NCBI GenBank assembly: GCA_963663765.2
Contig: CAXXUA010000002.1
Coordinates: 237,894 to 301,893, forward strand
Source of the DNA: Candidatus Poribacteria bacterium
GTDB lineage: Bacteria > Poribacteria > WGA-4E > WGA-3G
DNA length: 64,000 bases
Direction: 5' to 3'
Below, one piece after another: positions 6,398 to 24,625 of the stretch; the stretch's first letter is position 1; every line of letters starts with the position of its first letter. The position numbers and the translations under genes were made by a program. The notes under the pieces were generated by a model. It saw nothing but the letters and a program-made list of their open reading frames with translations, searched no databases and was not told where the DNA came from.

Positions 6398-6524
6398 ATT
6401 TTTACCAAAAAACTTCAATATTTATTGGCAATTGTGTTATACTTGCATGCTATACTTTAATTTATATGCATCTAAAAAGACAGATGTATAAAAACATTAT
6501 TTGTTCACACTCTCGGAGGAATGC

Positions 6525-7325
6525 ATGGAACAGCATATAACAGATGAACAGTGGGAACATTTCTCGGAATACGGCTATGTTCATATCGGTCAGGTAGCAA
6601 CAGATGACGAATTATCAGAGTTACAACAACACATGGACGACATCATGCTTGGAAAAGCCCCCATAGATTATAACAAAATCATGATGCAACTGGATAGAGC
6701 GCCGGGAACAAACGCACCCGGACCACAATCTGCTGGACATAAAGGGGTTACTTTACTTTATAGAAAAATTCAGAATCTTGAATTGGATCCATACTTCTTA
6801 AAATATCTTCAAAATACTACTTTCAAAGAAGTCTGTGCAAACATCTATGGAAAAGATGTGCCTATTCTCTGTTTCCGCGCAATGTTTATGAACAAACCCG
6901 CAGGAGAAGGTACATATCTCGTCTGGCATCAAGATAGATGGACAGACCTTGACCGAGATCCTCAGATTACAATCTATACAGCATTAGATCCCGCAACGAT
7001 TGAAAATGGATGTGTACATATTATCCCCGGCTCACATAGCGAACTCATTAATCCATCTCACGGTTCTGGTTTTCTTAATCAAGAACAGATAGATGACATC
7101 GTTGCGAATTCAACGCCACTGCCGCTGGAATTAAAAGCAGGCGAGGTAGTCCTACTACACAATTGGATGCTACACAGTTCGGGGACAAACCAAACGGAAA
7201 TTCCGCGTAGAGCTTTCAGCGTGTGCTATATGCATGGAGATACAAAATCCCATCGCGGTTCAACCTTTAGACGCGTATTCGGTGAGGGTGCTTTGACAGT
7301 TGAAGATTTAGCGAAAACTGCATAG
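6525..7325 (+). CDS. Phytanoyl-CoA dioxygenase (PhyH) family protein
   Basis: WHQD, ALDPATIENGC..IPGSH, HSSG.N, RRA motifs; GGAGG RBS before ATG 6525. Confidence 0.88.
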   Translation: MEQHITDEQWEHFSEYGYVHIGQVATDDELSELQQHMDDIMLGKAPIDYNKIMMQLDRAPGTNAPGPQSAGHKGVTLLYRKIQNLELDPYFLKYLQNTTFKEVCANIYGKDVPILCFRAMFMNKPAGEGTYLVWHQDRWTDLDRDPQITIYTALDPATIENGCVHIIPGSHSELINPSHGSGFLNQEQIDDIVANSTPLPLELKAGEVVLLHNWMLHSSGTNQTEIPRRAFSVCYMHGDTKSHRGSTFRRVFGEGALTVEDLAKTA

Positions 7326-7380
7326 AAAAAAGTTTATACACATACTTGAACAAAACTTAATATTGAATAGGGAGAATGGA

Positions 7381-8385
7381 ATGTCAAAAATTCGACTCGC
7401 CATGATTGGTTGTGGCGGTAACTCTTCAGGACATGCTCGGAGAATGAACGGAAATCCTGACGTGCAAATCGTTGGTACATGCGATGTCAATACCGATATA
7501 GCAAACAATTACATTGACCGAAATCTATCAGACCTGACCCCGCGTCCGAAGGCTTATGATGATATAGCAAAAATGCTTGCAGATGTAAAACCGGATGCTG
7601 TCGTAATTTCTACACCACATACATTACACTTTGAACAAGGCATGCAAGCACTTGATGCAGGATGTCACGTCTTGATGGAAAAACCGATGGTCACCTCCTC
7701 TGAAGACGCATATACACTGGCTGAGAAAGTAGAAGAAACTGGTCGTATTTTGACAATCGGTTACAACACACCATGTTCAGCAAACTTTCACTATATCAGG
7801 GAGATTGTACGTAACAAAGAATTCGGCAAGTTAGAATTGGTCGTTGGGTACATTACACAAAACTGGAAACGTGCTACAACCGGTAAATGGCGGCAGAAAC
7901 TTGCACTTTCTGGAGGTGGACAAGCTTATGATAGCGGCGCACATCTCCTAAACAGCCTGTGTTGGGCAGTGGAAGCAAAGGTTGAAGAAGTTTATGCATA
8001 TACAGACAATATGGACACCGAAGTAGATATTAATTCATCAATCAACATCAAATTTGAAAACGGTGTTCTCGCTTCAATGGTGATCAGTGGAAACTGTCCA
8101 AGTCCTGGTGGCACACACATGTCACTCATCTTTGACAATGGTAGAATTGAAGTTGATGGTTGGGGTGGTGGATGGATTCGGGTATGGAAAGGCGGAGAAG
8201 CCTTAAATCCTCCTCCAATTTCACCTGAGATGTCAGCTGGAAATCCAGATACCAATTTCATTGATGCTATCTTAGGAAGAGCAGAACCGCGCACAAACCC
8301 ATTCAACGGCATCATTCAATCTGAACTGATGGACCTGATATACGAATCTGCAGAAAAGAAAACACCTGCGCGCCCGAAACGGTGA
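7381..8385 (+). CDS. Gfo/Idh/MocA family oxidoreductase
   Basis: IGCGG, STPHTLH, MEKPM, YDSGAH motifs. Confidence 0.9.
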   Translation: MSKIRLAMIGCGGNSSGHARRMNGNPDVQIVGTCDVNTDIANNYIDRNLSDLTPRPKAYDDIAKMLADVKPDAVVISTPHTLHFEQGMQALDAGCHVLMEKPMVTSSEDAYTLAEKVEETGRILTIGYNTPCSANFHYIREIVRNKEFGKLELVVGYITQNWKRATTGKWRQKLALSGGGQAYDSGAHLLNSLCWAVEAKVEEVYAYTDNMDTEVDINSSINIKFENGVLASMVISGNCPSPGGTHMSLIFDNGRIEVDGWGGGWIRVWKGGEALNPPPISPEMSAGNPDTNFIDAILGRAEPRTNPFNGIIQSELMDLIYESAEKKTPARPKR

Positions 8386-8446
8386 AAAGAGAATACCTTG
8401 TAATGCTTCACAAAGCGAATTCAAATTCAATTGAAGTAGGAAAATA

Positions 8447-8707
8447 ATGGATACTTTCTTTTCGTTTCACCAAATATCATACGTAGTTTTCTTAATCTTT
8501 TTTATTATAATGGCTTATCGTGTATTTAACTATACTGAAACTGATAAGCATGGTCGTCGTTATCGTAGACCGTTGTTCTATCCAGGGAGAATCTGTCCAG
8601 GATGCGGGTTGAAAGTTATTACGAGAATACCGTCTTGTCCTTCATGTGGTCGTGATTTCTCCCAAGACAGTGAAGGTGCAAATGTTCAGCATAAGGATAA
8701 TTTCTAA
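8447..8707 (+). CDS. Small membrane-anchored zinc-ribbon protein
   Basis: N-terminal hydrophobic helix followed by CPGC...CPSC. Confidence 0.65.
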   Translation: MDTFFSFHQISYVVFLIFFIIMAYRVFNYTETDKHGRRYRRPLFYPGRICPGCGLKVITRIPSCPSCGRDFSQDSEGANVQHKDNF

Positions 8708-8796
8708 AATCGAATTTATACATTTTTAATTGAAACTAAATCATTACCTTATTTTTTAACTATATGCCAAAAACCACAACTCAAGGTGTAGAAAAG

Positions 8797-9717
8797 ATGT
8801 CTGATCAACTAAATTTTAAATCTGGATACATAAGTATTATTGGAGCTGCTAATGTTGGAAAATCTACCCTACTTAACACTATCTTAGGGCAAAAATTAGC
8901 AATAGTCACGCCAAAACCGCAAACTACACGAAACCAAATTCGTGGGATTGTCACAACTGATACACATCAAATGGTTTTTGTGGATACCCCTGGACTAATG
9001 GACCCAAAATATCGACTGCAGTCAGAAATGGTACGAACTGCTTACGGAGCTTTACGAGACGCAGATGTTGTACTATTCGTAATAGATGTCACAAATCAGA
9101 ATGAAAAGATTGATGAAAAAATCTTAGAACGACTCAATGCTGAAAAAAACACCAAAAAAGTTCTCATTCTAAATAAGGTAGACTTAATAAATAAACGAAA
9201 ACTACTGCCAATAATTGAAAACTACAGTGAAGAATTAGACTTTGACAATATCATACCCATCTCAGCGAAGACAGGTGACGGAGTACCAGAACTACTCATT
9301 CAGATAAAATCTTTTCTACCACCCGGACCGAGATACTTTCCAGATGACCAACTGAGCGACTTACCGGAACGTTTCTTCATCTCAGAAACTGTCAGAGAAA
9401 AAATTATGTTGATTACACAACGGGAAGTTCCCTATGCATCAGCTGTGATCATAGAGGAATTTGAAAAAAGAAAACGACGTAAAACTGAAGATATTGTTTA
9501 TATCCGAGCTATTGTATATACCGAAAAACAGACACAAAAACAGATAATAATAGGTAAAGGTGGAAAGTTAATTAAACGTGTTGGGGAATTAGCACGTCTT
9601 GAAATTGAGGAATTCTTGGACTCACCAGTCTATTTGGAATTGTATGTGACAGTAAAAGAAAATTGGCGGAGAGATGTACGGAAACTTAAAGAATTAGGCG
9701 GATTCTTAGATTTGTAA
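8797..9717 (+). CDS. era: GTPase Era
   Basis: GAANVGKST, PQTTR, DTPG, NKVD, KH domain IIGKGG; alternative start at 8764. Confidence 0.96.
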   Translation: MSDQLNFKSGYISIIGAANVGKSTLLNTILGQKLAIVTPKPQTTRNQIRGIVTTDTHQMVFVDTPGLMDPKYRLQSEMVRTAYGALRDADVVLFVIDVTNQNEKIDEKILERLNAEKNTKKVLILNKVDLINKRKLLPIIENYSEELDFDNIIPISAKTGDGVPELLIQIKSFLPPGPRYFPDDQLSDLPERFFISETVREKIMLITQREVPYASAVIIEEFEKRKRRKTEDIVYIRAIVYTEKQTQKQIIIGKGGKLIKRVGELARLEIEEFLDSPVYLELYVTVKENWRRDVRKLKELGGFLDL

Positions 9718-9781
9718 ATACGGCTGATTAGAACTGAATAACTCCTAAAAAACTTAACTTAATAATAGAGGGAAACATACA

Positions 9782-12700
9782 ATGGCAGAAGCGTCAATTG
9801 AAATATACGGCGCAAGAGAACATAATCTAAATAATATTGACGTGAGACTCCCCAAAGATAAACTCATTGTCTTCACAGGGGTAAGTGGTTCTGGTAAATC
9901 ATCACTTGCAATTGATACACTCTATGCAGAAGGTCAAAGAAGATACATTGAATCACTTTCTGCGTACGCGAGACAGTTCTTAGGACAACTCGGTAAAGCT
10001 GAAGTAGATAGAATTGTTGGGTTGTCACCTTCCATAGCAATTGATCAAGGTTCAACGGGTCATAATCCGCGTTCAACGGTTGCAACCGTAACCGAAATCT
10101 ACGATTATTTTCGTGTGCTTTTTGCGCGCGCAGGTGAATTCCACTGTCTTGAATGTGGTCAGAAGGTGGGATCGCAAACAATCGCGGATATCGTTTCAAA
10201 CATCATGAACCTACCCCAACGTACCCGCATTATGATCTTAGCACCTATCGTCAAAGGCAGACGGGGCGAGTACAGAAAAGAGTTATCAGACGCTCGAAAA
10301 ATGGGATTTATTCGCGCCCGTATTGATGGGGAAATCCACGAAATCAACGCCAACATTGCACTTAATCCAAATCAAAGACACACCATAGACTTGGTAATTG
10401 ATAGAATCATTATTAAGGACGATGTTGAGAGCCGTGTTGCTGAAGCCGTTGAAACGGCTCTCAACATAGGAGACGATATACTCATTGTCAATGTCGTTTC
10501 CTCAGATAATCCTTCTTCCCGAAAGCAATCAAAAGGTGAAGACTTGCTGTTTAGTCGGCAGTATTCTTGCACGAACTGTCAAGTAAGTTATAATATCCCT
10601 GAACCCCGTCATTTTTCTTACAACAGTCCTTACGGTATGTGTGAGCAGTGCCGAGGATTAGGAGTACAAATGGCAATCTCTCCGAAGTTGATTGTTGTTG
10701 ATGATAACTTACCAGTCATGAAAGGTGCTTTACTATTATGGGAAAAACCCGATTTAAACGAGAAGATGATTTTGCAAACGTTAGCAACACACCTCGGATT
10801 CAAACAAAATACGCCATGGAAGGAACTTACACACGAACAACAACATGCAATATTGTATGGTACGGGTGATACATTACTCACTTTTCGTCAACCAACTGTG
10901 AGTAATAGACGTAAGGGAAAACGTGTACGTGGAAGATTTCAAGGACTGATACCAGCACATGAACATCGATACTTATGGTTAGACGTTAATGAAGAGGGGC
11001 ATGGAAACCCTCATTTACCCGATTACTTTGTCAAGTTGCCGTGTAGAGATTGTGACGGAACCCGTTTGAACAATGTAGTAAAAGCAATTACTATAGCAGG
11101 TAAAAACATCACGGAAGTCCTTGATATGTCTATACAGGACTCAGCATCTTTCTTCAATACACTTGAACTACCTGAAAAACAAGCTTTCATAGCTACAGAA
11201 CTCTTGAAAGAAATTCGTTCACGTCTCGGTTTCCTACTGGATGTGGGATTAGGTTATCTCACACTGTCCCGTTCCGCACCAACCTTGTCTGGTGGAGAAG
11301 CACAAAGAATACGTCTTGCAAGCCAAGTTGGTGCAGGACTACGGGATGTTACTTATGTCCTTGACGAACCAAGCATCGGTTTGCACCCTCGCGACCACGC
11401 AGGACTACTAAAGACTTTAATGAACCTACGCAATCAAGGAAATACCGTTATCGTCGTTGAACATGACGAAGCAACTATGTTGGTAGCCGATTGGATAGTA
11501 GATTTCGGTCCCGGTGCAGGAATAAGAGGCGGGGAAATTACCGGTATGGGAACACCTGAGCAAATTATAAATGATAACGACTCACTAACAGCACAATATC
11601 TAAGGGGTGATAAAAAAATTATCCATCCTGAATCACGAAGACCAACAGGCGAAAGATGGGTACAAATCTGCAAAGCACGACAGAATAACCTAAAAGATAT
11701 TAGTCCTAAAATTCCACTCGGAACGCTATGTTGTGTAACAGGGGTTAGCGGTTCTGGGAAAAGTTCTCTTATTCATGACATCCTTTACTGTGCACTCGCA
11801 AGAGACCTGATGAGAGCAAAAACTGTACCCGGAGATTACGGTACAATACAAGGTGTTGTTGATGACAAAGACGTTCCTGTCCCTGAAGTCGTGGACAAAA
11901 TCATCAACATTAATATGGCACCTATCGGACGCACACCACGTTCAAATCCTGCTACATATACAAAGGTATTTGATGCTATCCGAGCTTTCTATACAAACCT
12001 ACCAGATTCCAAACTTCGCGGATATAAACCCGGTCGGTTTAGTTTCAATGTACCCGGTGGACGATGTGAAGCATGCACTGGTAATGGTGCTAAAAAAATT
12101 GACATGGGGATACTCGCAGATGTATGGGTGGAGTGTGATGTCTGCAGTGGAAAAAGATATAACAATGAAACACTTAATATCAAATTTAAAGGGAAAAGTA
12201 TTTCTGATGTCTTACAAATGGACATTGCAACCGCTCTTGAGCATTTCGCAGACATACCCAAAATTGCAAGAGGCTTACAACTGCTTCACGATGTGGGTTT
12301 AGATTACATAAAACTTGGACAACCGGCACCAACCCTTTCTGGTGGGGAAGCACAACGAATTAAACTCTCAAAGGAACTTTCAAAAAGAAGTACCGGTAAA
12401 ACTCTTTATATCCTTGATGAACCTACAACAGGTTTGCACTTTGAAGATGTCAATAAGTTGTTGTCTATTCTGCACAGATTAGTTGATGAAGGCAACACAG
12501 TCGTCGTGGTTGAACACAACCTTGAAGTAATCAATTCTGCAGATTATCTGATCGATTTAGGACCAGAAGGCGGTATGGAAGGCGGAGAAATTGTAGTTGT
12601 CGGCACTCCTGAAGAAGTTATGAATATACCTGAGTCTTATACAGGACAAGCATTGCGTGGAGAATTCGATCTCTGGAAAAACATTGATAAAAAATCCACC

Positions 12701-15502
12701 ATTGCTGAAAATGGCGGCATACCCAAAAACATCCTTGAGGAAACTATTTTCAATGACACTAAGACTATTTCGGTTCAAGGAGCAGAAGAAAATAATCTAA
12801 AAAATATTGACATAGACATACCCCACCAAAGGTTAACCGCATTGACTGGTGTTAGTGGATCAGGTAAGACCTCACTCGCACTTGATACAATATATGCGGA
12901 AGGACAACGCAGGTATATTGAGACACTCAGCACTTATGCACGTCAATTTATCGGAAGCATGGAGAAACCGAAAGTTTCAAAAATAGAAGGACTTTCACCA
13001 GCAATAGCAATCACACACTCAAGTCCAAGCCAAAACCCGCGTTCCACTGTCGCTACAATAACAGAAATACATGACGGTCTCCGTACACTATATGCCCGAT
13101 GGGGACAACCACACTGTCCAGATTGCAATGTTGAAGTCCGACCACAAACAGCGCAACAGATAGTTGAATACGTCTTTAGTCTCATGAAGAATAAACGGGT
13201 TGATGTGATGGCACCGCTTACAAACTTCAAATCTTTTGAAGGTAATGCTGAGGTATTAATAGGCGCAGAACGTACTCCCGGACTAAAAGGTAACGAAGAT
13301 TATGCAGACGCTTTTCGTAGGTTACAAAGAATAGGTTTCGCAAGGGTACAAATTGATGGAGAGATCTTTAGACTTGATGAAACGCCAGAAATCCATAAAC
13401 GTCGCAGGCACGAAGTTTTTCTCGTAATTGACCGCATTCAACTCAACGTTGATGAAAAAAGTAGACTCACAGAAGCAGTAGAATTAGCTCTGATTGAAAG
13501 TGAAGGATTTGTTATTTTAGAGGAAAAAATAGATAAAGAAATACCTAATAGAGTTTTCTTCAGTGAACACGCAATGTGTTCAAACTGTGGACGCAACTTC
13601 CCACAACTTACACCCAGACATTTCTCCTTTAACAATAAATTAGGAGCATGCAGTTCCTGTGATGGTATTGGAAGATCCTCTATAGATCAACAAAACACTT
13701 GTCAAAGATGTAATGGAACACGATTAGATGAATTTCCACGCAACGTCCAATTCTCTGACAAAACAATCGCAGAACTTATGGCAATTTCAATATCTAAGAC
13801 AATAGAATTCTTTGGCACACGAATAAATACAATTGAGAAGCATCTCACGACAGCCGCTGGTTCAAAGGAAGCAAAAGCAGCAATGGAACAAGTCCGAGAC
13901 GTATCTACATCAAGAGCAACACATCCAAAACTTCACTCCCATACTTCACCCGAATTTGAAGCACAACTGTTACGTCAATTACAAATCCGCCTAAAATTCT
14001 TAGAAAATATCGGACTCGGATACCTCGGTTTAGACCGACCCGCACCAACACTTTCTGGGGGAGAAATTAGAAGAATTCGACTCGCAAGTCAACTCGGAAC
14101 TGGTCTAACTGGTGTAACATACATACTTGACGAACCCAGTATCGGATTACACCCACGCGACCAAGAACAACTGATCCTCGCAATGAAGGATTTGCGCGAT
14201 ATAGGAAATAGTGTACTCGTCGTTGAACACGATAAGGATACAATTCTATCAGCAGACCATATCATTGATTTCGGACCAAAAGCAGGAAAACAGGGTGGTG
14301 AAATAATCGCTACCGGTACACCTGAAACCTTCACTGAATCACAACCTATTCCAATTCCTAATTCTAAAAAAACAAACAGCAACTCTGATAAGACAAAGAC
14401 AAAAGCATCTGAAAAGGGATTAACACAAGCTTATCTTTCCAATGAATTGCAAATTCCTGTACCTGCAGTCCGGCGAAAAGGTTCTGGAAAATGGTTGAAA
14501 CTTTTCGGAGCAAAAACAAACAATCTAAAAGACATTGATATAGAAATCCCTTACGGAACGTTTACTTGTGTAACTGGTGTTTCAGGATGTGGAAAAAGTT
14601 CACTGATTGAAGGTACACTCCGACCCGCACTGGAAGACAAACGCTCAATTAGAAAAGGAAACCAAAGTTCAACCAATACTTTTGGGACTCCATTGTATGA
14701 TAAAATCCAAGGAATAACGCCAATTGAACGAATGATACACATAGACCAAAAACCTATAGGTGAAACACCACGGTCTAACCCAGCAACTTACACCGAACTA
14801 TTTACCAAAATCCGTGAAATGTTTGCTGAATTACCTGATGCAAAACGTCGTGGATTTAACAGAGGAAGGTTTAGTTTCAATCTATCTTATGGGCAGTGTG
14901 AAGAGTGTGACGGACACCGTTACAATCGCATAGAGATGCATTTCTTACCAGATGTATGGATACCGTGCGAAAACTGCAACAGCACAGGATACAACGCTGA
15001 AACGCTTGAAGTAAGGTACAAAGGTAAGAATATCGCAGAAGTTCTACAAATGACGGTACAAGAAGCTCTTGACCTATTTAGTAATATTGCAAGAATAAAA
15101 CGACCACTTCAAACATTAGCAGATGTCGGTTTAGACTATATTCAATTAGGACAAGCAGCCACTACACTCTCCGGTGGAGAAGCACAACGCGTCAAACTCG
15201 CAAAAGAATTAGCACGTCGTCAAACAGGTACCACGCTCTATATCATGGATGAACCAACAACGGGTTTGCATTTTGATGACGTTCAAAAGCTGCTCAACGT
15301 ACTCAACAAACTTGTTGATGCAGGCAACACGATTGTTGCTATAGAACACAATCTGGATGTTATCAAATCTGCTGATTGGCTAATAGATTTGGGACCAGAA
15401 GGAAGTGACGCCGGTGGTTATATTGTTGCAATGGGTACTCCTGAAGAAGTTGCAGAGAACAAAGAATCACACACCGCACGTTTCCTCAGTAAGATATTAT
15501 AG
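9782..15502 (+). CDS. uvrA: Excinuclease ABC subunit A, internally duplicated (1906 aa)
   Basis: Two complete UvrA modules, four Walker A motifs, repeated NPRSTVAT and LSGGE. Confidence 0.95.
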   Translation: MAEASIEIYGAREHNLNNIDVRLPKDKLIVFTGVSGSGKSSLAIDTLYAEGQRRYIESLSAYARQFLGQLGKAEVDRIVGLSPSIAIDQGSTGHNPRSTVATVTEIYDYFRVLFARAGEFHCLECGQKVGSQTIADIVSNIMNLPQRTRIMILAPIVKGRRGEYRKELSDARKMGFIRARIDGEIHEINANIALNPNQRHTIDLVIDRIIIKDDVESRVAEAVETALNIGDDILIVNVVSSDNPSSRKQSKGEDLLFSRQYSCTNCQVSYNIPEPRHFSYNSPYGMCEQCRGLGVQMAISPKLIVVDDNLPVMKGALLLWEKPDLNEKMILQTLATHLGFKQNTPWKELTHEQQHAILYGTGDTLLTFRQPTVSNRRKGKRVRGRFQGLIPAHEHRYLWLDVNEEGHGNPHLPDYFVKLPCRDCDGTRLNNVVKAITIAGKNITEVLDMSIQDSASFFNTLELPEKQAFIATELLKEIRSRLGFLLDVGLGYLTLSRSAPTLSGGEAQRIRLASQVGAGLRDVTYVLDEPSIGLHPRDHAGLLKTLMNLRNQGNTVIVVEHDEATMLVADWIVDFGPGAGIRGGEITGMGTPEQIINDNDSLTAQYLRGDKKIIHPESRRPTGERWVQICKARQNNLKDISPKIPLGTLCCVTGVSGSGKSSLIHDILYCALARDLMRAKTVPGDYGTIQGVVDDKDVPVPEVVDKIININMAPIGRTPRSNPATYTKVFDAIRAFYTNLPDSKLRGYKPGRFSFNVPGGRCEACTGNGAKKIDMGILADVWVECDVCSGKRYNNETLNIKFKGKSISDVLQMDIATALEHFADIPKIARGLQLLHDVGLDYIKLGQPAPTLSGGEAQRIKLSKELSKRSTGKTLYILDEPTTGLHFEDVNKLLSILHRLVDEGNTVVVVEHNLEVINSADYLIDLGPEGGMEGGEIVVVGTPEEVMNIPESYTGQALRGEFDLWKNIDKKSTIAENGGIPKNILEETIFNDTKTISVQGAEENNLKNIDIDIPHQRLTALTGVSGSGKTSLALDTIYAEGQRRYIETLSTYARQFIGSMEKPKVSKIEGLSPAIAITHSSPSQNPRSTVATITEIHDGLRTLYARWGQPHCPDCNVEVRPQTAQQIVEYVFSLMKNKRVDVMAPLTNFKSFEGNAEVLIGAERTPGLKGNEDYADAFRRLQRIGFARVQIDGEIFRLDETPEIHKRRRHEVFLVIDRIQLNVDEKSRLTEAVELALIESEGFVILEEKIDKEIPNRVFFSEHAMCSNCGRNFPQLTPRHFSFNNKLGACSSCDGIGRSSIDQQNTCQRCNGTRLDEFPRNVQFSDKTIAELMAISISKTIEFFGTRINTIEKHLTTAAGSKEAKAAMEQVRDVSTSRATHPKLHSHTSPEFEAQLLRQLQIRLKFLENIGLGYLGLDRPAPTLSGGEIRRIRLASQLGTGLTGVTYILDEPSIGLHPRDQEQLILAMKDLRDIGNSVLVVEHDKDTILSADHIIDFGPKAGKQGGEIIATGTPETFTESQPIPIPNSKKTNSNSDKTKTKASEKGLTQAYLSNELQIPVPAVRRKGSGKWLKLFGAKTNNLKDIDIEIPYGTFTCVTGVSGCGKSSLIEGTLRPALEDKRSIRKGNQSSTNTFGTPLYDKIQGITPIERMIHIDQKPIGETPRSNPATYTELFTKIREMFAELPDAKRRGFNRGRFSFNLSYGQCEECDGHRYNRIEMHFLPDVWIPCENCNSTGYNAETLEVRYKGKNIAEVLQMTVQEALDLFSNIARIKRPLQTLADVGLDYIQLGQAATTLSGGEAQRVKLAKELARRQTGTTLYIMDEPTTGLHFDDVQKLLNVLNKLVDAGNTIVAIEHNLDVIKSADWLIDLGPEGSDAGGYIVAMGTPEEVAENKESHTARFLSKIL

Positions 15503-16029: not shown

Positions 16030-16248
16030 ATGATACATATTAACGAAGAACTTTGCGTTTATTGTGGGGCATGCGTTGCAGTCTGTCCCGAAAATATTAT
16101 TGACTTGATAGACACACATCTGAAAATTGACCAACCCAAGTGCATTGACTGTATGAAATGCGTCAAAGGCTGCCCGATTGGTGTTCTTTCTATGGAACGG
16201 AACGGAAAGATTTATTCTTTCGATTATCCCGAGAGAGGACTTTTCTGA
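16030..16248 (+). CDS. 2[4Fe-4S] ferredoxin
   Basis: Two CxxCxxCxxxCP motifs (CVYCGACVAVCP, CIDCMKCVKGCP). Confidence 0.92.
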   Translation: MIHINEELCVYCGACVAVCPENIIDLIDTHLKIDQPKCIDCMKCVKGCPIGVLSMERNGKIYSFDYPERGLF

Positions 16249-16275
16249 TAAAGAGTGCTGTAGAGAGAAGTATAG

Positions 16276-17469
16276 ATGCTACATTCAGAGTATGATGTCA
16301 TTGCTGTTGGGGCGGGACCAGGTGGTTCTATCGCAGCAAAAGTTGCCGCTGAAAATGGTTTGCGGGTTCTCCTTTTAGAGAAACGGCAAGAAATAGGCGT
16401 ACCACTCCGCTGAGCTGAAGGTATTGGCACAGAGGATCTGTGCGAATTTATTCAGCCAGACGCGGCATGGATATCAAATGAGATCCACGGGGCACGTATT
16501 TTCTCCCCTAACGAGACTGCAGTCACAATTCATCAACCAGGCGCAGGTTACGTCTTAGAACGAAAGGTGTTTGATCTCCGTCTTGCGGAGATGGCATCAA
16601 ACTCGGGTGCCGAGGTTATGGTAAAGGCACGTGTTACAAATGTCACTTTCTCTGAAGCTGGTGCTGTGAACGGTGTCGTATTCCGACATTCAGGACGCGA
16701 ATATACGTGCAAAAGCAAGATAGTTATCGCTGCGGATGGGGTTGAATCGCAAGTTGGACGGTGGGCAGGTATTGATACTACCCACCAACTACGTGATATT
16801 GGTGCTTGTGCCCAGTATCTCATTTCAAACATTGATATTATGCCTGAGTACTGTGATTTTTACTTCGGGCGCGAGGTTGCTCCACTTGGTTATGTTTGGG
16901 TTTTTCCAAAAGGGAAAGACATCGCAAACGTTGGGGTCGGCGTTAGGGCAAATATTTCAGGAAAAGACAGCAAACTTGCTATAGACTACCTAAACGCATT
17001 TGTCAAACGGAAGTTCCCGGAGGGTAAAGTTTTAGGATTAGTGTGCGGTGCGGTTCCTGTCGGACAAGGTTTGCCGCGGATTGTCGGGGATGGCATTCTG
17101 CTTGTTGGCGACGCAGCACATCACAGCGATCCAGTCTCTGGAGGAGGTATCCCTAACGCAATGTATTCTGGGAAATTTGCAGCGGAAGCAGCGGTCAAGG
17201 CTATACACATCGGTGATGTCTCACGAGATATTCTCAGCGCATATTCAAAACGTTGGGACCGCGAAATCGGTAAACACTTTAAGCATATCTGTCGCATCCG
17301 CGATGGAGTTTTAAAATTCAATGACGATACACTTGATAGATATGCAGAACTACTTTCTCAGATACATGGTGAACCGTTAACGTTGGCAAAGATCTTCCAA
17401 ACAGTACTTAAAAATCAACCAAGTTTGCTTCTTGAACTCCGACACCTCATTTTAGCTGGATGGGTTTAG
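16276..17469 (+). CDS. Geranylgeranyl reductase (DGGGPL reductase-like) family flavoprotein, probable selenoprotein (UGA codon 46 at 16411-16413), 397 aa
   Basis: ATG 16276 gives [13 protein letters not shown]...[20 protein letters not shown]..., in frame with ORF 16567..17469, which carries [14 protein letters not shown] and LVGDAA...GGGI. Confidence 0.88.
16414..16456 (+). promoter_or_regulatory. Bacterial SECIS-like hairpin
   Basis: GCTGAA/TTCAGC lower stem, GCACAGA/TCTGTGC upper stem, apical GGA loop starting 20 nt after the UGA. Confidence 0.8.
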
Positions 17470-17613: not shown

Positions 17614-18501
17614 ATGCAAATTCCAAACTACTATCAAATCTTAGAGATCAGTCGTGATGCGACTACGACCGAAATAAAAAGTTCATTCAGAAAACTGGCA
17701 AAACGATACCATCCCGATAAACAAAACCTCAACAATAACGCAGATGTTGTAGCAAAAGCAAAACAGATGTTCGGTAAGGTTTGCAATGCTTATGATGTGC
17801 TACATGACGAAAAACGCAAAGCTGACTATGACCGTAAACTACAGAACCTTGAACGTCAGCAGCAATCATACAGCTCATATTTTGACAGACTCAATAAACT
17901 GAATCAAGATTATGCAAAAATAGAATTACTATTCCAAGCACTCTTACATCAGAACTACGAAACAGGTATCTCGTTATATGAGCAACTATGTAATAGACGT
18001 GCGCAAAACGGGAAAAAATGGTGTATAGATGATTTTTTCAATTACGAAGATAGCAGAGATTGCGAATTTCTTATTGCAGAAGCATACCAATATCTCGCTT
18101 TTACAAACGGAAATGGTTCTGATTCGGAACGACATCGAAAAATAGAATTAGCAATGCGTATCTATGAATCTTTGTTGTCTGCAGAAGGACGAAGACCCTG
18201 TTTCAAGCACTTCATAAATGAGGTAAAAGATCGTCTCAAGAAAATCTACCTCTATTATTATAGTGTTGAAGGATACCAACAAACACAACAAATTCCATTA
18301 TCAAAGATACGCACATTAAGACTTCCTAAACGAGAAACTGCATGGATGTATAAAAAGATTGCTGAATTCTATGTTGAAATAGACTTGTTCCCACATGCTC
18401 GACAGGTTCTGCTCATGGCATTTGAACTACAACCCAATCTTGCTGGTGCAAAGAAGATTTGTAGGATTTTAAACATTGCAAACCAGCAAGTAGTTTATTG
18501 A
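17614..18501 (+). CDS. J-domain (DnaJ-like) protein with TPR-like C-terminus
   Basis: NYYQILEI...FRKLAKRYHPDK...AYDVL. Confidence 0.85.
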   Translation: MQIPNYYQILEISRDATTTEIKSSFRKLAKRYHPDKQNLNNNADVVAKAKQMFGKVCNAYDVLHDEKRKADYDRKLQNLERQQQSYSSYFDRLNKLNQDYAKIELLFQALLHQNYETGISLYEQLCNRRAQNGKKWCIDDFFNYEDSRDCEFLIAEAYQYLAFTNGNGSDSERHRKIELAMRIYESLLSAEGRRPCFKHFINEVKDRLKKIYLYYYSVEGYQQTQQIPLSKIRTLRLPKRETAWMYKKIAEFYVEIDLFPHARQVLLMAFELQPNLAGAKKICRILNIANQQVVY

Positions 18502-18880: not shown

Positions 18881-21568
18881 ATGCCTTTACCTCCTGATTT
18901 TCCTGAATCTCCACATGCGATTATTGACCCTTCAGTTCGTTGGACACCAGATGCTACCCAATTGTCCTTATTGGGTAGTGCCATGTTACTCCCTCCACTT
19001 GTTCAAAAACTACGGGAGGCGGTTAAGACATGGCGTAACGACAACTACAAAGGTGCCTCGGAAACAAGTAAAGCACTGCTCAATTGGTGGTTCAAGACAC
19101 CACACCTGCAAGAACAGTCTGATGGGACAACATCAGAATTTCAATATTACTTTGCCCAACGTGAAGCACTTGAAACTATTGTTTACCTATATGATGTCAT
19201 CAAGGTAAAGGACAAGTACGATTTGATGAGCTTTGACAGTTCAGGTTTTGTTTCGGCAGGAATGTTTGACGAAGATTGGAAACGGTTTGTCATAAAAATG
19301 GCAACAGGCACAGGCAAAACAAAGGTGATGAGTCTTGCTATCGCTTGGAGTTTCTTCCACAAGCTGTATGAATCCGACTCCGATCTCTCCCGCAATTTCC
19401 TTGTCATCGCTCCTAATATCATTGTACTTGACCGTCTTTATAAAGATTTTAAAGGATTAGACATTTTTTTTCAAGACCCAGTACTGCCAAATAACGGTTT
19501 TGAAGGTCATGATTGGCGAAACGATTTTCAACTCACCTTGCATGTGCAGGACGAAGTGCGTACTATCCGATCTACTGGGAACATCTTTCTCACTAATATT
19601 CACCGTGTTTATTCCAGCGACCAAACCCCGCCTTCTCCCGACGATGAGGATAGTAAAGATTATTACTTGGGTGAAAAACCGACTGGAGCAACCACAGATT
19701 CAAAAGTAGACCTCGGAGATATAGTCCGTGATATTGACGAATTGATGGTACTTAACGATGAAGCACATCATATCCATGATCCTCGAATGGCATGGTTCAA
19801 GTCAATCGAGGATATTCATAATCGGCTTGTGCAGAAAGACAGTGAGTTATCATTACAGCTTGACGTAACTGCAACCCCAAAGCATAATAACGGTGCAATC
19901 TTTGTTCAAACTGTAGCAGATTACCCACTTGTAGAGGCTATTTCGCAAGATGTCGTTAAACATCCTATTCTTCCAAATGATGAAAGCAGAAAGAAACTTG
20001 AAGAGAAGCAGAGTGTGAAGTTTACAGAGAGATACGCGGACTATCTACACCTCGGTGTGGTTGAGTGGCGAAAAGCGTCCGAAAGACACGAAAAATTGGG
20101 TAAGAAAGCCATTCTGTTTGTGATGACCGATGATACCAAAAACTGTGATGAGGTAGCAACTTATCTTGAAAACCGTTACCAAGACTTAAGAGATGCTGTG
20201 CTGGTGATTCATACAAAGAATAATGGTGAAATCTCTGAGGCGACATCTGGTAAGAAAAAGGAGGAACTTGAGGAACTCCGAAAGCAAGCGAATGAGATCG
20301 ATTTAGCGATAGACAAAAACCCATATAAGGCAATTGTCTCCGTTTTAATGCTCAAAGAGGGGTGGGATGTAAAGAACGTTACCACAATTGTAGGGCTTCG
20401 CGCTTATACCGCAGCGAGTAATATTTTACCAGAACAGACGCTTGGACGTGGACTTAGACGAATGTATAACAATTCAGTGGATGAGTCTGTGAGTGTCATC
20501 GGCACTGAAGTCTTCATGGAATTTGTTGAAAAGATCCAAGAGGAAGGAGTTGAATTAGAACGTAAAGAAATGGGAGAAGGCACAGAACCCATAGCACCCC
20601 TTGTAATTGAGGTTGACAAGGAAAATGTGGACAAAGACATTGGCGCGCTTGATATTGATATACCGATATTGACACGACGCGTCTATCGTGAATATAAGCA
20701 TCTTGCACACTTAGATGTTAACAGCCTTGACTTCAAACCTATATTGTATTTGACGTTTGGTGTAGATCAGTTACGAGAGATTGAATTCCATTATATGACA
20801 ACAAGTGAGGTTGCACACACAACTATTTTGGAAAGTCCGGGGGCAGAAGACTACCGAAACGCTCTCGGTTATTTTGCACAAACTCTTATGAAGGAACTCC
20901 GACTCGTCGGCGGTTATGATGTACTTTATGCTAAGGTAAAAGAATTTGTTCAGCATTATCTCTTTGGTGAAACGGTGGCATTAGACGATCCCATCACCAT
21001 AAAAAATCTCGCTGAACTCCGCGCCACAAAAACAATTATTGAAACATTCAAACGTGCAATAAATGACCTTACAGTCCAGGACAAAGGAAATGCTAATCTA
21101 AGCGAAACCACCAAAATTAGCAGCACAAGACCTTTTATGGTGAAAGACCAAGAACACTTAGTACCGAAAAAATCAGTGTTCAACATTATCACTGGCGATA
21201 GTCATTTGGAATTGGAATTTGCCAAATTTCTGGAGGAGTGCCCGGACGTTGTATCCTATACAAAAAACTATTATGGGGTGCAGTTTAAACTTGATTATGT
21301 GAATGCCGATGGTGATATTTCTAACTACTATCCCGATTTTATCGTTAAACTGATGGATGGAAGTGTGATTATCGTTGAAACTAAGGGATTAGAAGACTTA
21401 GACGTACCGCTCAAGATGCAACGCCTGTCGCAATGGTGCAAGGATGTTAACAATATCTCAGAAGATGTGACTCATGACTTTGTTTATGTTGATGAGGAGA
21501 GTTTCAGGGTATATCAACCGACAACATTTCAGCAACTGCTTGATGGTTTTACCGAATACAAACCGTAG
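18881..21568 (+). CDS. Type III restriction enzyme Res subunit (SF2 helicase plus PD-(D/E)xK nuclease)
   Basis: MATGTGKT, NDEAHH, TATP, LKEGWDV, QTLGRGLR, YYPDF..VETKG motifs. Confidence 0.9.
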   Translation: MPLPPDFPESPHAIIDPSVRWTPDATQLSLLGSAMLLPPLVQKLREAVKTWRNDNYKGASETSKALLNWWFKTPHLQEQSDGTTSEFQYYFAQREALETIVYLYDVIKVKDKYDLMSFDSSGFVSAGMFDEDWKRFVIKMATGTGKTKVMSLAIAWSFFHKLYESDSDLSRNFLVIAPNIIVLDRLYKDFKGLDIFFQDPVLPNNGFEGHDWRNDFQLTLHVQDEVRTIRSTGNIFLTNIHRVYSSDQTPPSPDDEDSKDYYLGEKPTGATTDSKVDLGDIVRDIDELMVLNDEAHHIHDPRMAWFKSIEDIHNRLVQKDSELSLQLDVTATPKHNNGAIFVQTVADYPLVEAISQDVVKHPILPNDESRKKLEEKQSVKFTERYADYLHLGVVEWRKASERHEKLGKKAILFVMTDDTKNCDEVATYLENRYQDLRDAVLVIHTKNNGEISEATSGKKKEELEELRKQANEIDLAIDKNPYKAIVSVLMLKEGWDVKNVTTIVGLRAYTAASNILPEQTLGRGLRRMYNNSVDESVSVIGTEVFMEFVEKIQEEGVELERKEMGEGTEPIAPLVIEVDKENVDKDIGALDIDIPILTRRVYREYKHLAHLDVNSLDFKPILYLTFGVDQLREIEFHYMTTSEVAHTTILESPGAEDYRNALGYFAQTLMKELRLVGGYDVLYAKVKEFVQHYLFGETVALDDPITIKNLAELRATKTIIETFKRAINDLTVQDKGNANLSETTKISSTRPFMVKDQEHLVPKKSVFNIITGDSHLELEFAKFLEECPDVVSYTKNYYGVQFKLDYVNADGDISNYYPDFIVKLMDGSVIIVETKGLEDLDVPLKMQRLSQWCKDVNNISEDVTHDFVYVDEESFRVYQPTTFQQLLDGFTEYKP

Positions 21569-21599
21569 TGATAAAGCTCTCAATAACCATTCTCATTTT

Positions 21600-21628
21600 T
21601 TGACAAACACCACATTTTTTGATACAAT
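21600..21628 (+). promoter_or_regulatory. Internal sigma70 promoter within the RM locus
   Basis: TTGACA-17 bp-TACAAT, 8 nt before ATG 21637. Confidence 0.6.
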
Positions 21629-21636
21629 AATAGATT

Positions 21637-22113
21637 ATGAAAAACTTAAATTGGGTTCTGGCCAGCTTGCTAGTACTTGTTGCTCTGGGGATATCAGTTT
21701 TAGTCGTGTACACAACAACCACAAGAACTTTAACCGCTGTAGAAAGTACCATTTGGCAGGTCTTTGTCCTTACTGCAGGACTTGCAGGTTCTTTTATTTT
21801 TGGTCGACAGTCGGCTCGTGAAGCTGCAAGAGAAATGATTAAGCCACATGCCAAGTCTGCATTCAGACGACTTGTTTCTTTATACGAAAGTCTTTCCCGA
21901 GCTTCAAATGAAATAGAATTGACAGAGAGTTCAGAATCTTCTGAAGACATTCGAGTAACAATTGCTAAACTTGACGCAATTGTTACTGAGCAACTAAACG
22001 CAGCAGATGATGCGTTAGAAGATTGGAGAGACATTGTTCCAGAAGACGTAGAAGAGTTAAAACAGAAACTTGAATCAAAAATACAAGGAGGGATTGGTAG
22101 TGACACAAACTAA
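21637..22113 (+). CDS. Hypothetical protein, two TM helices plus coiled-coil
   Basis: Two N-terminal hydrophobic segments and an acidic helical tail. Confidence 0.7.
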   Translation: MKNLNWVLASLLVLVALGISVLVVYTTTTRTLTAVESTIWQVFVLTAGLAGSFIFGRQSAREAAREMIKPHAKSAFRRLVSLYESLSRASNEIELTESSESSEDIRVTIAKLDAIVTEQLNAADDALEDWRDIVPEDVEELKQKLESKIQGGIGSDTN

Positions 22114-22477
22114 ACCAATTCGTGGTAAAGTAGCACGAATTTTGACCGAAAGGGCACTCGTAATAAATATAGGTGAGGTAGATGGTGTAAATTACGGTAT
22201 GGAGTTTTATATCTCAAACATTATTCCGGTAATAGATCCTGATACGTCTAAAGAAATAGGTAAGGTTGATTGGCCTATTGTTTATTTATACGTTAATGAT
22301 GTTCAAGAACATATAACTGTTTTATTCTCAAAAGACAAACCTTTGTTCTCAGGAGACAAGGGTTCATTTAGTAAATCTCTATTATCTTCAAGTAGAGCAT
22401 TTGTAAATATTGGAGATCCTGTCGTACAAGTCTTTGAAACAGACGAACCAGAACAGAAAGACTCCAACGTGAATTAA
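22100..22477 (+). CDS. Hypothetical beta-rich protein (FlgT C-terminal-like)
   Basis: GKVARI..LVINIG..DGV..GM.F..IDPDT.KEIG pattern; GGAGG RBS before GTG 22100. Confidence 0.6.
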   Translation: MTQTKPIRGKVARILTERALVINIGEVDGVNYGMEFYISNIIPVIDPDTSKEIGKVDWPIVYLYVNDVQEHITVLFSKDKPLFSGDKGSFSKSLLSSSRAFVNIGDPVVQVFETDEPEQKDSNVN

Positions 22478-22489
22478 CGAAGGATATCC

Positions 22490-24625
22490 ATGCCACGACT
22501 CACCGAATCAGAACAACAAGAAATTATCCGCTATCTTGAAGCAGACAAACCGCTGCCCGAAAAATACCGCTTTTTGCTGTTTGAAGATAAGCGCGAAGTA
22601 GAACTCGTTTGGAACGGCAAGACTAACGAAGTTTGCAACATCGTGCTTCCATTCCAGACTATTGAACACGTAGACGAACCCCGGACAGAAAAACCCACTG
22701 AAGATAACCTGCAACTCGATTTATTTGACACGCGCGGCCGCCAACGCAAAGGCTGGACAAACAAGTTGATCTGGGGTGATAACAAATTAGTTTTATCATC
22801 ACTCAAGAACGGACCGCTGCGTGAGGAAATTGAAGCACAAGGCGGACTAAAACTTATCTATATTGACCCGCCGTTTGACGTAGGTGCGGATTTTTCTATG
22901 GATATTGAGATTGGCGGCGAAACGCTTACCAAAAACGCTAATATCCTTGAAGAAATAGCCTACCGCGACACATGGGGTAAAGGTGCTGATTCTTTTATTG
23001 CCATGATTTATGAGCGGTTGATTCTGATGCGGGATTTACTTACAGAGGACGGCAGTATTTATGTGCATTGCGATTGGCGTGTGAATAGTCACATTCGTTT
23101 AGCTTTAGATGAAGCGTTTAGAAATAATTTTGAACGGGAAGTAATTTGGTCATTTGATACAAAATCAGGATACAAATCTGCAGTTACGAATTGGGTAAGA
23201 AGTCATGATACAATTCTTTTTTATTCAAAAAATCACGATAAAAAAATCTTCAATAAACAATTTACACCGTATGATGATAAGTATTTAGAGAGGTTCAAAA
23301 GTGTTGATGCTGATGGCAGAAAATATCGAGATGACAGGGGAAATGGAAAAAAACAGTACCTTGATGAACTTCAAGGGATAGCCATTCCAGATGTATGGAG
23401 AGACATTAAATCTTTTCAACAAGATGCTACATCTGACGAATATTTGAATTATCCTACTCAAAAAAGGGAGGCCCTACTTGAACGCATCATCAAAGCATCT
23501 TCTAATGAAGGTGACCTTGTTGCAGACTTCTTCTGTGGTTCTGGTACTACCGCCGCTGTTGCTGAAAAACTTGGACGTAAATGGATTATCACAGACCTCG
23601 GCAAGTTTGCCATTCACACCACACGCAAACGGATGATCAGGGTGCAACGTCAACGCAAAGTGGACGGTGAAGACTATCGCGCTTTTGAGATTCTCAATCT
23701 CGGCAAGTATGAACGCCAACATTATATCGGTGTTAATCCAAATCTGCGCGAAGTTGAACAGCAGAAACAGTTAGAGGAAAAGGAAAAGATGTTTATTGAG
23801 CTTATCCTGCGTGCTTATTCAGCCGAAAAAGCGGAAGGTTTTGCCAGTTTTCAGGGTAAAAAAGCGGGAAGGCTTATCGCAATCGGTCCTGTCAATTTAC
23901 CTGTAACACGTCTGTTCATAGAGGAAATTATCCTTGAATGCCGTAAGCATCAGATTACCCGTGTTGACGTTCTCGGCTTTGAGTTTGAGATGGGGTTGTT
24001 TCCTAATGTGTTGCAGGAAGCGAAAAACAAAGGTATTGACCTTGCACCGAAATATATCCCTGCCGAAGTATTTGATAAGCGTGCAGTGGAGCAGAAGCAG
24101 GTTGTTTTTCACGATGTGGCGTTTATTGAAGTTAAACCTCATGTGACAGCAGCAGAAGGAGATAAACCCGCTACGGTAAAGGTAGAATTGACCGATTTTT
24201 CTGTCTTTTATTCACAGGATTCTATCTCACACGCTGAGCAGACATTAAAGAATAAGGGTAGTAAAATCGTTGTGGAGAAAGGGAAAGTCGTAAAAGTTAG
24301 CAAAGATGCTGAAGGTAATACTACGCGAGAAACATTAACCAAAGAGTGGACAGACTGGATAGACTACTGGTCAGTTGATTTTGATTTTGAGAGCAAACGC
24401 GAAATTATCCGTGTGCAGAATCCCGACACGGATGAGTGGGAAGAGCAGTGGTCAGGTGACTTTATCTTTGAAAATGAGTGGCAAAGTTTCCGCACCAAGA
24501 AGGATCGTTCTTTGGAATTAACGAGTATTGCTTACGAATGCGAACCTCGTCCCCGCAAAATCGCTGTTAAAGTTGTAGACATTTTCGGTAATGATACGAT
24601 GACTATTGTAGAGGTGAACATTTGA
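22490..24625 (+). CDS. Type III RM Mod subunit (N6-adenine DNA methyltransferase)
   Basis: LIWGDN, IYIDPPF, YPTQK, DFFCGSGTT motifs. Confidence 0.92.
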   Translation: MPRLTESEQQEIIRYLEADKPLPEKYRFLLFEDKREVELVWNGKTNEVCNIVLPFQTIEHVDEPRTEKPTEDNLQLDLFDTRGRQRKGWTNKLIWGDNKLVLSSLKNGPLREEIEAQGGLKLIYIDPPFDVGADFSMDIEIGGETLTKNANILEEIAYRDTWGKGADSFIAMIYERLILMRDLLTEDGSIYVHCDWRVNSHIRLALDEAFRNNFEREVIWSFDTKSGYKSAVTNWVRSHDTILFYSKNHDKKIFNKQFTPYDDKYLERFKSVDADGRKYRDDRGNGKKQYLDELQGIAIPDVWRDIKSFQQDATSDEYLNYPTQKREALLERIIKASSNEGDLVADFFCGSGTTAAVAEKLGRKWIITDLGKFAIHTTRKRMIRVQRQRKVDGEDYRAFEILNLGKYERQHYIGVNPNLREVEQQKQLEEKEKMFIELILRAYSAEKAEGFASFQGKKAGRLIAIGPVNLPVTRLFIEEIILECRKHQITRVDVLGFEFEMGLFPNVLQEAKNKGIDLAPKYIPAEVFDKRAVEQKQVVFHDVAFIEVKPHVTAAEGDKPATVKVELTDFSVFYSQDSISHAEQTLKNKGSKIVVEKGKVVKVSKDAEGNTTRETLTKEWTDWIDYWSVDFDFESKREIIRVQNPDTDEWEEQWSGDFIFENEWQSFRTKKDRSLELTSIAYECEPRPRKIAVKVVDIFGNDTMTIVEVNI

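Follow-up and report, generated by a model that had tools for sequence, protein, structure and literature searches.

A predicted selenocysteine-containing geranylgeranyl reductase in Candidatus Poribacteria

A 64,000-nt stretch of the genome of a Candidatus Poribacteria bacterium (assembly GCA_963663765.2, contig CAXXUA010000002.1, here C2, positions 237894-301893 of the forward strand; hereafter the window, numbered from its first nucleotide) encodes a flavoenzyme of the geranylgeranyl reductase (GGR) family with an in-frame UGA codon where other members of the family have their active-site cysteine. It is very probable that this UGA, codon 46 of the gene, is a genuine selenocysteine (Sec) codon, and nearly as probable that the gene specifies an intact GGR-family flavoenzyme in which Sec replaces the active-site cysteine. 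By every computational criterion the product is a predicted selenoprotein, and it is a previously uncatalogued, predicted Sec variant of a well-known flavoenzyme, kept across an order of Poribacteria. An earlier note, made from the nucleotide sequence of the window alone, had proposed that the UGA is read as Sec; as a prediction this is borne out by TGA/Cys pairs among homologs, the presence of the Sec machinery, retention of the TGA in 39 orthologs, and a covarying hairpin that follows it. The host genome (G000), assembled from a metagenome, comprises 6.35 Mb in 15 contigs and is 97.8% complete.

The reductase gene and its in-frame UGA codon

The gene and the sequence features on which its assignment depends are as follows.

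16276-17469, forward strand: gene of a GGR-family flavoenzyme, 397 codons, with UGA (predicted Sec) as codon 46 and a TAG stop at 17467-17469.
16309-16326, forward strand: flavin adenine dinucleotide (FAD)-binding motif GxGxxG, residues 12-17, from the translation (G12, G14, P15 and G17 invariant in protein alignment A1).
16411-16413, forward strand: in-frame UGA, proposed Sec codon 46, in the stretch P-L-R-U-A-E-G, aligned with Cys45 of 3oz2_A.
16882-16908, forward strand: catalytic-domain motif PxxYxWxFP, residues 203-211 (P203, Y206, W208, F210 and P211 invariant in A1).

Read from the ATG at 16276 to the TAG at 17467-17469, the frame contains the TGA at 16411-16413 as its sole internal stop; the start, the TGA, the length and the end given in the earlier note all match on re-reading. 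A mechanical list of open reading frames (ORFs) offers just a 300-aa piece (GTG 16567 to 17469), the fragment without a FAD-binding start that the same note had remarked upon, and because the GxGxxG motif lies upstream of the UGA, any product initiated after the UGA would be devoid of it. The read-through protein also possesses the GGG (residues 289-291) and LxGD (residues 276-279) motifs, in columns invariant or nearly so in A1, and the PxxYxWxFP motif is indeed shared with the archaeal reductases, as had been claimed (motifs as named in PMC10821996 and PMC6309074).

In profile scans with U read as C, the read-through protein scored 237.9 bits against the NCBIfam model TIGR02032 "geranylgeranyl reductase family" (cut-off 158.8) and 90.8 bits against Pfam PF22578 GGR_cat (cut-off 27). 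Its match to the digeranylgeranylglycerophospholipid (DGGGPL) reductase of Thermoplasma acidophilum (3oz2_A) is full length (E 2.1e-81, residues 5-392 versus 4-397), and codon 46 aligns with the cysteine of the "PVRCGEG" stretch, chain residue 45, so that the earlier placement of the TGA at the catalytic cysteine of the Thermoplasma enzyme is correct. Score and motifs place the protein within the GGR family; it is not an equivalog of the curated DGGPL reductases. The conserved cysteine (Cys47 in the Sulfolobus acidocaldarius enzyme SaGGR, Cys45 in the T. acidophilum enzyme TaGGR) lies behind the isoalloxazine ring, is described as conserved in all active GGRs and as essential for catalysis in the Sulfolobus enzyme, and has a role, in electron transfer or as a redox modulator, that is still called speculative (PMC10821996, PMC6309074). 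At the DNA level the Poribacteria gene lacks this conserved feature, its aligned codon being TGA; if the UGA is read as Sec, the selenium analogue of the active-site cysteine would occupy the position.

Conservation of the TGA codon and of its cysteine counterpart

Among 40 relatives, 15 possess a full-length ortholog (67-79% identity), each with exactly one stop, a TGA at the same codon, and two more (G016 and G028) hold fragmented copies. All 16 full-length orthologs, drawn from four families (67-100% identity), agree in having the TGA at this aligned codon. Across 176 genomes of the phylum, 56 contain a match at E <= 1e-40, and 39 matches carry the TGA (66-100% identity), all of them in the four families (f1 to f4) of the window's order of Poribacteria; one of these 39 also has a TAG and one begins at residue 45, and 38 are free of any other stop. 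Thirteen matches from families f5 to f11 that cover codon 46 (48-64% identity) have no stop. The gene occurs in 15 of 111 genomes of f1, the window's own family, and in 10 of 11, 9 of 29 and 7 of 7 genomes of f2, f3 and f4, respectively.

Named genome records have TGA in all 12 Poribacteria loci and TGC or TGT in all 68 other loci. The latter (38-48% identity) belong to Methanolobus, Methanosarcinales, Thermoplasmata, Hydrothermarchaeales, Ignavibacteria, Bacteroidota and Anaerolineae. Outside Poribacteria, the closest homolog found is that of a Methanolobus metagenome-assembled genome (48% identity). In the protein database, the codon-46 column is occupied by cysteine in 18 of 18 full-length homologs, which include Poribacteria-labelled proteins (60-64% identity) and ferredoxin-reductase fusions of about 470 aa (49-52% identity). 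Alignment of codon 46 among homologs, proposed in the earlier note as a check, thus returned the TGA/Cys pairing: TGA in all orthologs of the order, TGC or TGT in the 68 loci outside Poribacteria. Nor is the TGA a one-off nonsense mutation, since 39 orthologs in four families keep it.

Ratios of nonsynonymous to synonymous divergence (dN/dS) were computed from 19 of the 24 genes with the TGA (Sec forms), five of unequal length being dropped. Codons 1-45 (pN 0.068, pS 0.70, median dN/dS 0.045) are as constrained as codons 47-397 (dN/dS 0.067), and the TGA is unchanged throughout the Sec-form genes while synonymous sites are saturated. Purifying selection on codons 1-45 together with a constant TGA excludes both a pseudogene and an untranslated leader.

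A SECIS-like hairpin downstream of the UGA

The UGA is followed by an element resembling the bacterial Sec insertion sequence (SECIS).

16423-16447, forward strand: bacterial SECIS-like hairpin, with a 7-bp upper stem (16427-16433 paired with 16437-16443) and loop 16434-16436.

The 3-nt loop opens with an invariant G, the next base being G or T, and the stem is lengthened by three flanking A-U pairs. The spacing from UGA to loop is 20 nt, the hairpin alone folds at -11.5 kcal/mol, and the 76 nt from 16405 fold with z = -3.6. In an alignment of 25 Sec-form sequences (L040, L045 and L048 left out, being taken as copies of loci already represented from the genomes, and L130-L137 not included), 92.8% of the cells of the conserved helix are paired, versus 27-52% for the whole 16-pair structure in a control with partners slid by 1-3 columns. 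Three stem pairs change on both sides, and the loop-closing pair 29-33 occurs as CG (12 sequences), AU (9), UA (3) and UG (1). The peptide encoded at the hairpin varies (TEDLC, TVELC, TASLC, APALH), which indicates that the RNA retains its shape even where the protein differs.

The published bacterial SECIS model specifies a loop of 3-9 nt, an upper stem of 4-16 bp, a minimum free energy (MFE) of -7.5 kcal/mol or lower, a G as first or second loop nucleotide, in most cases with G or U after it, and a UGA-to-loop distance of 16-37 nt (PMC13188914); the hairpin agrees with the model in all of these respects. As a control, the same 25-nt segment was folded in 79 of the 80 named-record loci (L049 dropped), and an MFE of -7.5 kcal/mol or lower was obtained for 10 of 11 Sec loci (mean -9.7) versus 4 of 68 Cys loci (mean -3.0).

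In the minimum-energy fold of the window's own sequence, columns 10-15 pair with 47-52 as a lower stem; this was dropped from the element, having 70.7% of cells paired and no two-sided change. Cys56, the codon of which falls in the 3' arm of the hairpin, was discarded as a resolving partner of residue 46, being replaced by His or Arg in several Sec forms.

Selenocysteine machinery of the host genome

The search for selA, selB, selC and selD suggested by the earlier note found all four. The host genome encodes selA (620.8 bits) and selB (361.6 bits), both over curated cut-offs, and 54 nt after the selB match a tRNA-Sec (78.5 bits, likewise over its cut-off), which ARAGORN reports as tRNA-SeC with anticodon TCA. 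The selD gene (C2:220603-221529, over its curated cut-off) shares contig C2 with the reductase and precedes the start of the window by about 16 kb. It too is a selenoprotein gene: a single in-frame TGA occurs in a "CAG-U-ASK" stretch that fits the UxxK motif catalogued in PMC13188914. A selA gene over the cut-off is found in 39 of 41 relatives, with or without the reductase, and its co-occurrence with the reductase was therefore set aside as evidence, being non-discriminating. The 40 long ORFs of the window end in TAA (20), TGA (11) or TAG (9), and TGA also ends the ferredoxin gene that adjoins the reductase. Since TGA terminates ordinary genes, it has not been reassigned. A published study of sponge-symbiont bins reports that SelA and SelB co-occur in most of those bins and are missing from most close reference genomes, and a paper on Sec-containing hydrogenases lists Poribacteria among the source phyla.

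Origin of the Sec form and a probable second lineage

A quick maximum-likelihood tree was computed from the 24 Sec forms and 33 hand-picked Cys forms (21 database proteins and 12 of the 68 Cys loci). All 24 Sec forms fall into one clade (SH-like approximate likelihood-ratio support, SH-aLRT, 99) nested among Cys forms; its sisters are Poribacteria-like Cys proteins, and archaeal Cys forms lie outside. The branching within the clade follows the families (f4, f3 with f2, f1), and one change between Cys and Sec suffices. This topology is consistent with Cys having given way to Sec once, at the base of the Poribacteria order, with vertical descent and frequent loss thereafter.

Metagenome contigs were scanned with a pattern that required a TGA in the peptide context. 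Among the 30 stretches returned, 28 carry the TGA in a reductase and two are chance matches; 27 of the 28 are at least 80% identical to a Poribacteria Sec form over the aligned length, some being short fragments, and they contribute further stem variants with pairing kept. The remaining locus, L174 (a contig of 1675 nt, TGA at 241-243, forward strand), encodes a divergent reductase with TGA at the same Cys codon, the best matches of which are Cys forms of Chitinophagaceae and Ignavibacteriales (about 50% identity). In its hairpin, 6 bp of stem enclose a loop of 5 nt, in which position 2 is a G and another G follows; the spacing is 19 nt and the folding energy -8.3 kcal/mol. L174 groups with the Cys forms of Bacteroidota and Ignavibacteriota (SH-aLRT 100), and the approximately unbiased (AU) test rejects a single Sec clade (p 1.4e-5, for a group named after the BLAST result had been seen). 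The Cys-to-Sec switch has probably occurred at least twice, the predicted second lineage being drawn from one contig.

Probable ferredoxin partner and candidate ether-lipid gene context

The genes that bear on the electron donor and on the substrate are the following.

16030-16248 of the window, forward strand: gene of a 72-aa ferredoxin with two [4Fe-4S] motifs (Pfam Fer4/Fer4_9, NCBIfam FdxA_fam), with a TGA stop and then a TAA.
L138 (G031) 4856-13135, L140 (G027) 4735-8739, and loci L024-L035: sister-family cluster of a ubiA gene resembling digeranylgeranylglyceryl phosphate synthase (DGGGPS), a ferredoxin gene (fdx), the Sec-form GGR gene and the geranylgeranylglyceryl phosphate (GGGP) synthase (GGGPS) gene.

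The ferredoxin gene ends 27 nt before the start of the reductase gene, and in 21 of 24 Sec loci a ferredoxin gene immediately precedes that of the reductase; the other three loci constitute one subclade of the window's genus. Ferredoxin is fused to the N-terminus of a Cys-form reductase in other Poribacteria proteins (P0081, P0096 and P0114), and among the matches listed about 25 more proteins of 465-540 aa are fusions of a 2x[4Fe-4S] ferredoxin with a Cys-form reductase; some of the fusions are labelled Candidatus Poribacteria. These natural fusions support a partnership of ferredoxin and reductase. In Methanosarcina acetivorans, a neighbouring ferredoxin is reported to be the specific in vivo reductant of GGR (PMC10821996). 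Because of this precedent and of the Poribacteria fusions, the ferredoxin is probably the electron donor of the reductase.

In the sister families, the reductase gene is surrounded by candidate genes of ether-lipid synthesis. In 12 of 12 Sec loci of f2 to f4, the next gene after the reductase, within about 60-130 nt, encodes a GGGP synthase, and a UbiA prenyltransferase gene is present upstream, within the 1.5-kb flank, in 8 of 24 Sec loci (f3 and f4). In the annotated cluster of G027, which has two ubiA genes, ubiA directly precedes the ferredoxin gene; the cluster of G031 runs on into hrcA-grpE-dnaJ. The top NCBIfam matches of the cluster ubiA product are the prenyltransferase model NF009523 (236 bits, cut-off 269) and the DGGGP synthase model NF009521 (225 bits, cut-off 296). 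The cluster is a compact candidate archaeal-type ether-lipid operon in Poribacteria.

The host genome has a GGGP synthase gene beside grpE-dnaJ (C4:104622-105242, L120), the product of which exceeds the cut-offs of TIGR01769 (218.5 bits versus 161.55) and NF003198 (285.9 bits versus 247), and a gene for a UbiA-family protein (C4:255763-256602, L141) with NF009521 as its best match (230 bits, below the cut-off of 296), homologs of which adjoin the reductase cluster in f3 and f4. A second GGR-family paralog without stops (C4:741286-742263, L123) scores 129.5 bits against TIGR02032, below the cut-off; it may serve another prenyl substrate.

On account of the sister-family cluster, the balance tilts slightly towards the prenyl chains of GGGP/DGGGP-type ether lipids as the substrate of the reductase. 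Four observations weigh against this assignment. In the window's genome the reductase gene is unlinked to the GGGP synthase and DGGGPS-like genes, both of which are on contig C4. CarS (PF01864) has no match in this 97.8% complete genome. No glycerol-1-phosphate (G1P) dehydrogenase (G1PDH) was recognisable there through Pfam Fe-ADH_2, a dedicated G1PDH model not having been searched; four Fe-ADH_2 matches were rejected as G1P dehydrogenases, being generic alcohol dehydrogenases or AroB. Finally, the top NCBIfam model, the Thermoplasmatales DGGPL reductase equivalog NF041160, matched with 300.6 bits and a cut-off of 780, and the cut-offs of the other DGGPL reductase equivalogs were also missed (NF041080, 180 versus 580 bits; NF041385, 95.7 versus 700 bits).

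The same observations favour the idea that the protein is a genuine Sec reductase acting on another polyprenyl substrate, such as the side chain of menaquinone, a polyprenol or dolichol-like carrier, geranylgeranyl diphosphate (GGPP) or phytol. This serious rival, which is rather unlikely, also gains from the lack of linkage to GGGPS throughout family f1, from the presence of GGGPS in many genomes of the genus without the reductase, and from the report that GGR paralogs with other substrates are common (PMC10821996). Against it, the best-scoring characterised relatives, by NF041160 and 3oz2_A, are DGGGPL reductases, the GGGP synthase gene stands immediately after the reductase gene in every Sec locus of f2 to f4, with a DGGGPS-like prenyltransferase gene before it in eight loci, and a gene set with the same gaps sufficed elsewhere: GGGPS and DGGGPS of Ca. 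Cloacimonetes, in which CarS and G1PDH are likewise undetected, made unsaturated archaeol-type lipids in Escherichia coli (PMC7852524).

Proposed mechanism

If UGA-46 is a Sec codon and the substrate is an ether lipid, SelB with Sec-tRNA would read the hairpin and insert Sec at codon 46, and the enzyme would take electrons from the 2x[4Fe-4S] ferredoxin encoded upstream to saturate the geranylgeranyl chains of GGGP/DGGGP-type ether lipids. A selenol or selenolate beside the flavin would take over the job of the essential cysteine, which reviews describe as that of a redox modulator or electron relay (PMC10821996, PMC6309074); Sec would probably provide higher reactivity or better resistance to irreversible oxidation. 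As a tentative extension, Poribacteria of this order could possibly make saturated archaeal-type ether lipids from a dedicated gene cluster, with saturation dependent on selenium.

Alternative readings of the UGA codon

Several points weigh against a Sec-containing, functional enzyme. The gene appears dispensable and often lost, since searches did not find it in 96 of 111 genomes of the window's own family; the orthologs of G016 (C133:66263-67452) and G028 (C2:1265194-1266383, in the numbering of that genome) are split or have extra stops; and the ortholog of G134 (L130 / L051) has an extra TAG at codon 65, where all other orthologs encode an invariant Trp65; the TAG stems from recent loss of function or from a mistake in the assembly. 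With 3 nt, the loop is as short as the bacterial SECIS model permits, conservation is restricted to the upper hairpin with the lower stem not kept, and shuffle controls overstate significance because the Sec-form sequences are related. A scan of positions 16200-16700 against Rfam at E <= 10 returned no SECIS family, only a weak manA match on the other strand (14.5 bits, E 0.23), a result that is uninformative because bacterial SECIS elements are poorly covered. The second Sec lineage amounts to one 1675-nt contig, and the reviews leave the chemical role of the GGR cysteine unsettled. Selenium in the polypeptide is a sequence-based prediction.

Decoding of the UGA as Cys, Trp or Gly by a near-cognate or suppressor tRNA, with the hairpin merely stimulating read-through, is improbable. 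Insertion of cysteine at Sec-UGA codons under selenium shortage occurs in other systems and counts in favour of such decoding, as does the assignment of residue 46 as Sec by sequence comparison. TGA is nevertheless an ordinary stop in this genome, ending 11 of the 40 long ORFs and the adjoining ferredoxin gene; the complete Sec machinery is present and conserved; and the hairpin has SelB-type features (a loop that begins with G and continues with G or U, and the 20-nt spacing). The recoded site is a cysteine called catalytic or redox-active in the reviews cited above, a typical site for Sec, and a lineage wanting cysteine would keep TGC or TGT, like all of the relatives.

Far less credible still is decay of the gene after a nonsense mutation of TGC or TGT to TGA at the catalytic Cys codon. 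Such a pseudogene would account for the patchy and at times broken distribution (15 of 111 genomes in f1, fragments with further stops in G016 and G028, the extra TAG in G134) and for the truncated products of 283-346 aa that are all that gene callers report. It does not account for the persistence of the TGA across 39 orthologs in four families despite saturation at synonymous sites (pS about 0.7), purifying selection on both sides of the TGA (dN/dS 0.045 and 0.067), the lack of any other stop in 38 of 39 matches, the covarying hairpin after the TGA, or a gene tree that follows family taxonomy as expected of a vertically inherited functional gene. Conservation of the TGA across the order and the dN/dS values effectively refute the pseudogene.

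A split gene, with a 45-residue N-terminal peptide and a separately initiated C-terminal protein assembling non-covalently, is scarcely tenable: both parts are conserved as protein and gene callers do start the downstream product at internal codons, but the split would cut the FAD-binding Rossmann unit at an active-site residue, the first in-frame ATG, GTG or TTG after the stop in the ORF list is codon 98, so that conserved residues 47-97 would be lost, and no homolog is split at codon 46, all Cys forms being single chains.

Relation to known enzymes and selenoproteins

The Poribacteria reductase shares with the T. acidophilum (3oz2) and S. acidocaldarius (3atq/4opc series) GGRs the fold family, the GxGxxG, PxxYxWxFP, GGG and LxGD motifs and the active-site position, and differs from them in having UGA instead of a Cys codon, a bacterial host, and scores below the DGGPL equivalog cut-offs. 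A small ferredoxin gene likewise adjoins the GGR gene of M. acetivorans, which encodes a Cys form; the role of the Poribacteria ferredoxin is proposed from adjacency (21 of 24 loci) and from the fusions. Ca. Cloacimonetes, of the FCB group, have the same set of GGGPS, DGGGPS-like protein and euryarchaeal-like GGR (PMC7852524). They belong to another phylum, and Poribacteria go unmentioned in that paper; the Poribacteria reductase, in contrast, is a predicted selenoprotein and its gene is clustered with that of a ferredoxin in f2 to f4.

Bacterial FAD-dependent selenoenzymes have also been predicted from Sec/Cys homology and bacterial SECIS elements, with Sec in place of a catalytic cysteine, and the only FAD enzymes in Table 1 of PMC13188914 are of the CoA-disulfide-reductase type and a type III sulfide:quinone reductase. 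These belong to other families and act on sulfur substrates, whereas GGR reduces isoprenoid C=C bonds; the Sec of GGR would be a lone one, lacking a partner in a CxxU or UxxC arrangement (Sec forms do not conserve Cys56). No prenyl reductase appears among the 119 prokaryotic selenoprotein families and subfamilies of that table (2026), in keeping with the remark in the earlier note that the family was not known as a characterised selenoprotein, and the literature searched yielded no prior description of a Sec-containing GGR or DGGGPL reductase, though supplements of the surveys may list further families. What would be new in the predicted protein is the chemistry around Sec, which would serve as a single residue next to a flavin in the reduction of C=C bonds; the recoding itself follows no new principle.

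The expectation that standard annotation would break the gene was accurate. The 56 listed database orthologs of at least 65% identity are all called as fragments of 283-346 aa (70-87% of the query) without the FAD-binding start, and the call for the window's own gene is 292 aa. Metabolic reconstructions of these Poribacteria, which are mostly sponge-associated, consequently miss an intact reductase.

Sec almost always replaces a cysteine that performs redox or nucleophilic chemistry, and it may be argued that two independent Cys-to-Sec switches imply that the essential GGR cysteine is directly catalytic. If the tentative extension above, with selenium-dependent saturation of ether lipids, is true, the cysteine of GGR, replaced by Sec independently at least twice, would be truly redox-active and catalytic, settling a question open since the structures of 2010-2011. 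No earlier selenoenzyme would then belong to the biosynthesis of membrane lipids or isoprenoids, and the enzyme would be the first with a lone Sec as the flavin-adjacent catalytic residue in reduction of a C=C bond. The predicted selenoprotein would enlarge the prokaryotic selenoproteome by a family whose enzyme class is well studied and, with GGGP synthase and the DGGGPS-like gene, extend candidate archaeal-type ether-lipid synthesis to another phylum, tied to the supply of selenium.

Neighbouring genes in the window

The neighbours of the reductase in the window (UvrA-like, DnaJ-domain, ResIII helicase and DNA methylase genes) showed no link to lipids.

9782-15502, forward strand: 1906-aa ORF with UvrA interaction and DNA-binding domains and several ABC ATPase modules.
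17614-18501, forward strand: 295-aa protein directly downstream of the reductase, with a DnaJ domain only.
18881-24625, forward strand: ResIII-type helicase (895 aa) and DNA methylase (711 aa), likely a restriction-modification module.

The ferredoxin-reductase pair is situated between the UvrA-like gene and the DnaJ-domain gene. At about twice the usual length of UvrA, the 1906-aa ORF looks like a duplicated or fused UvrA-like protein. In the ancestral arrangement the cluster continued into hrcA-grpE-dnaJ, so the neighbour with the DnaJ domain may be a relic of a rearrangement.

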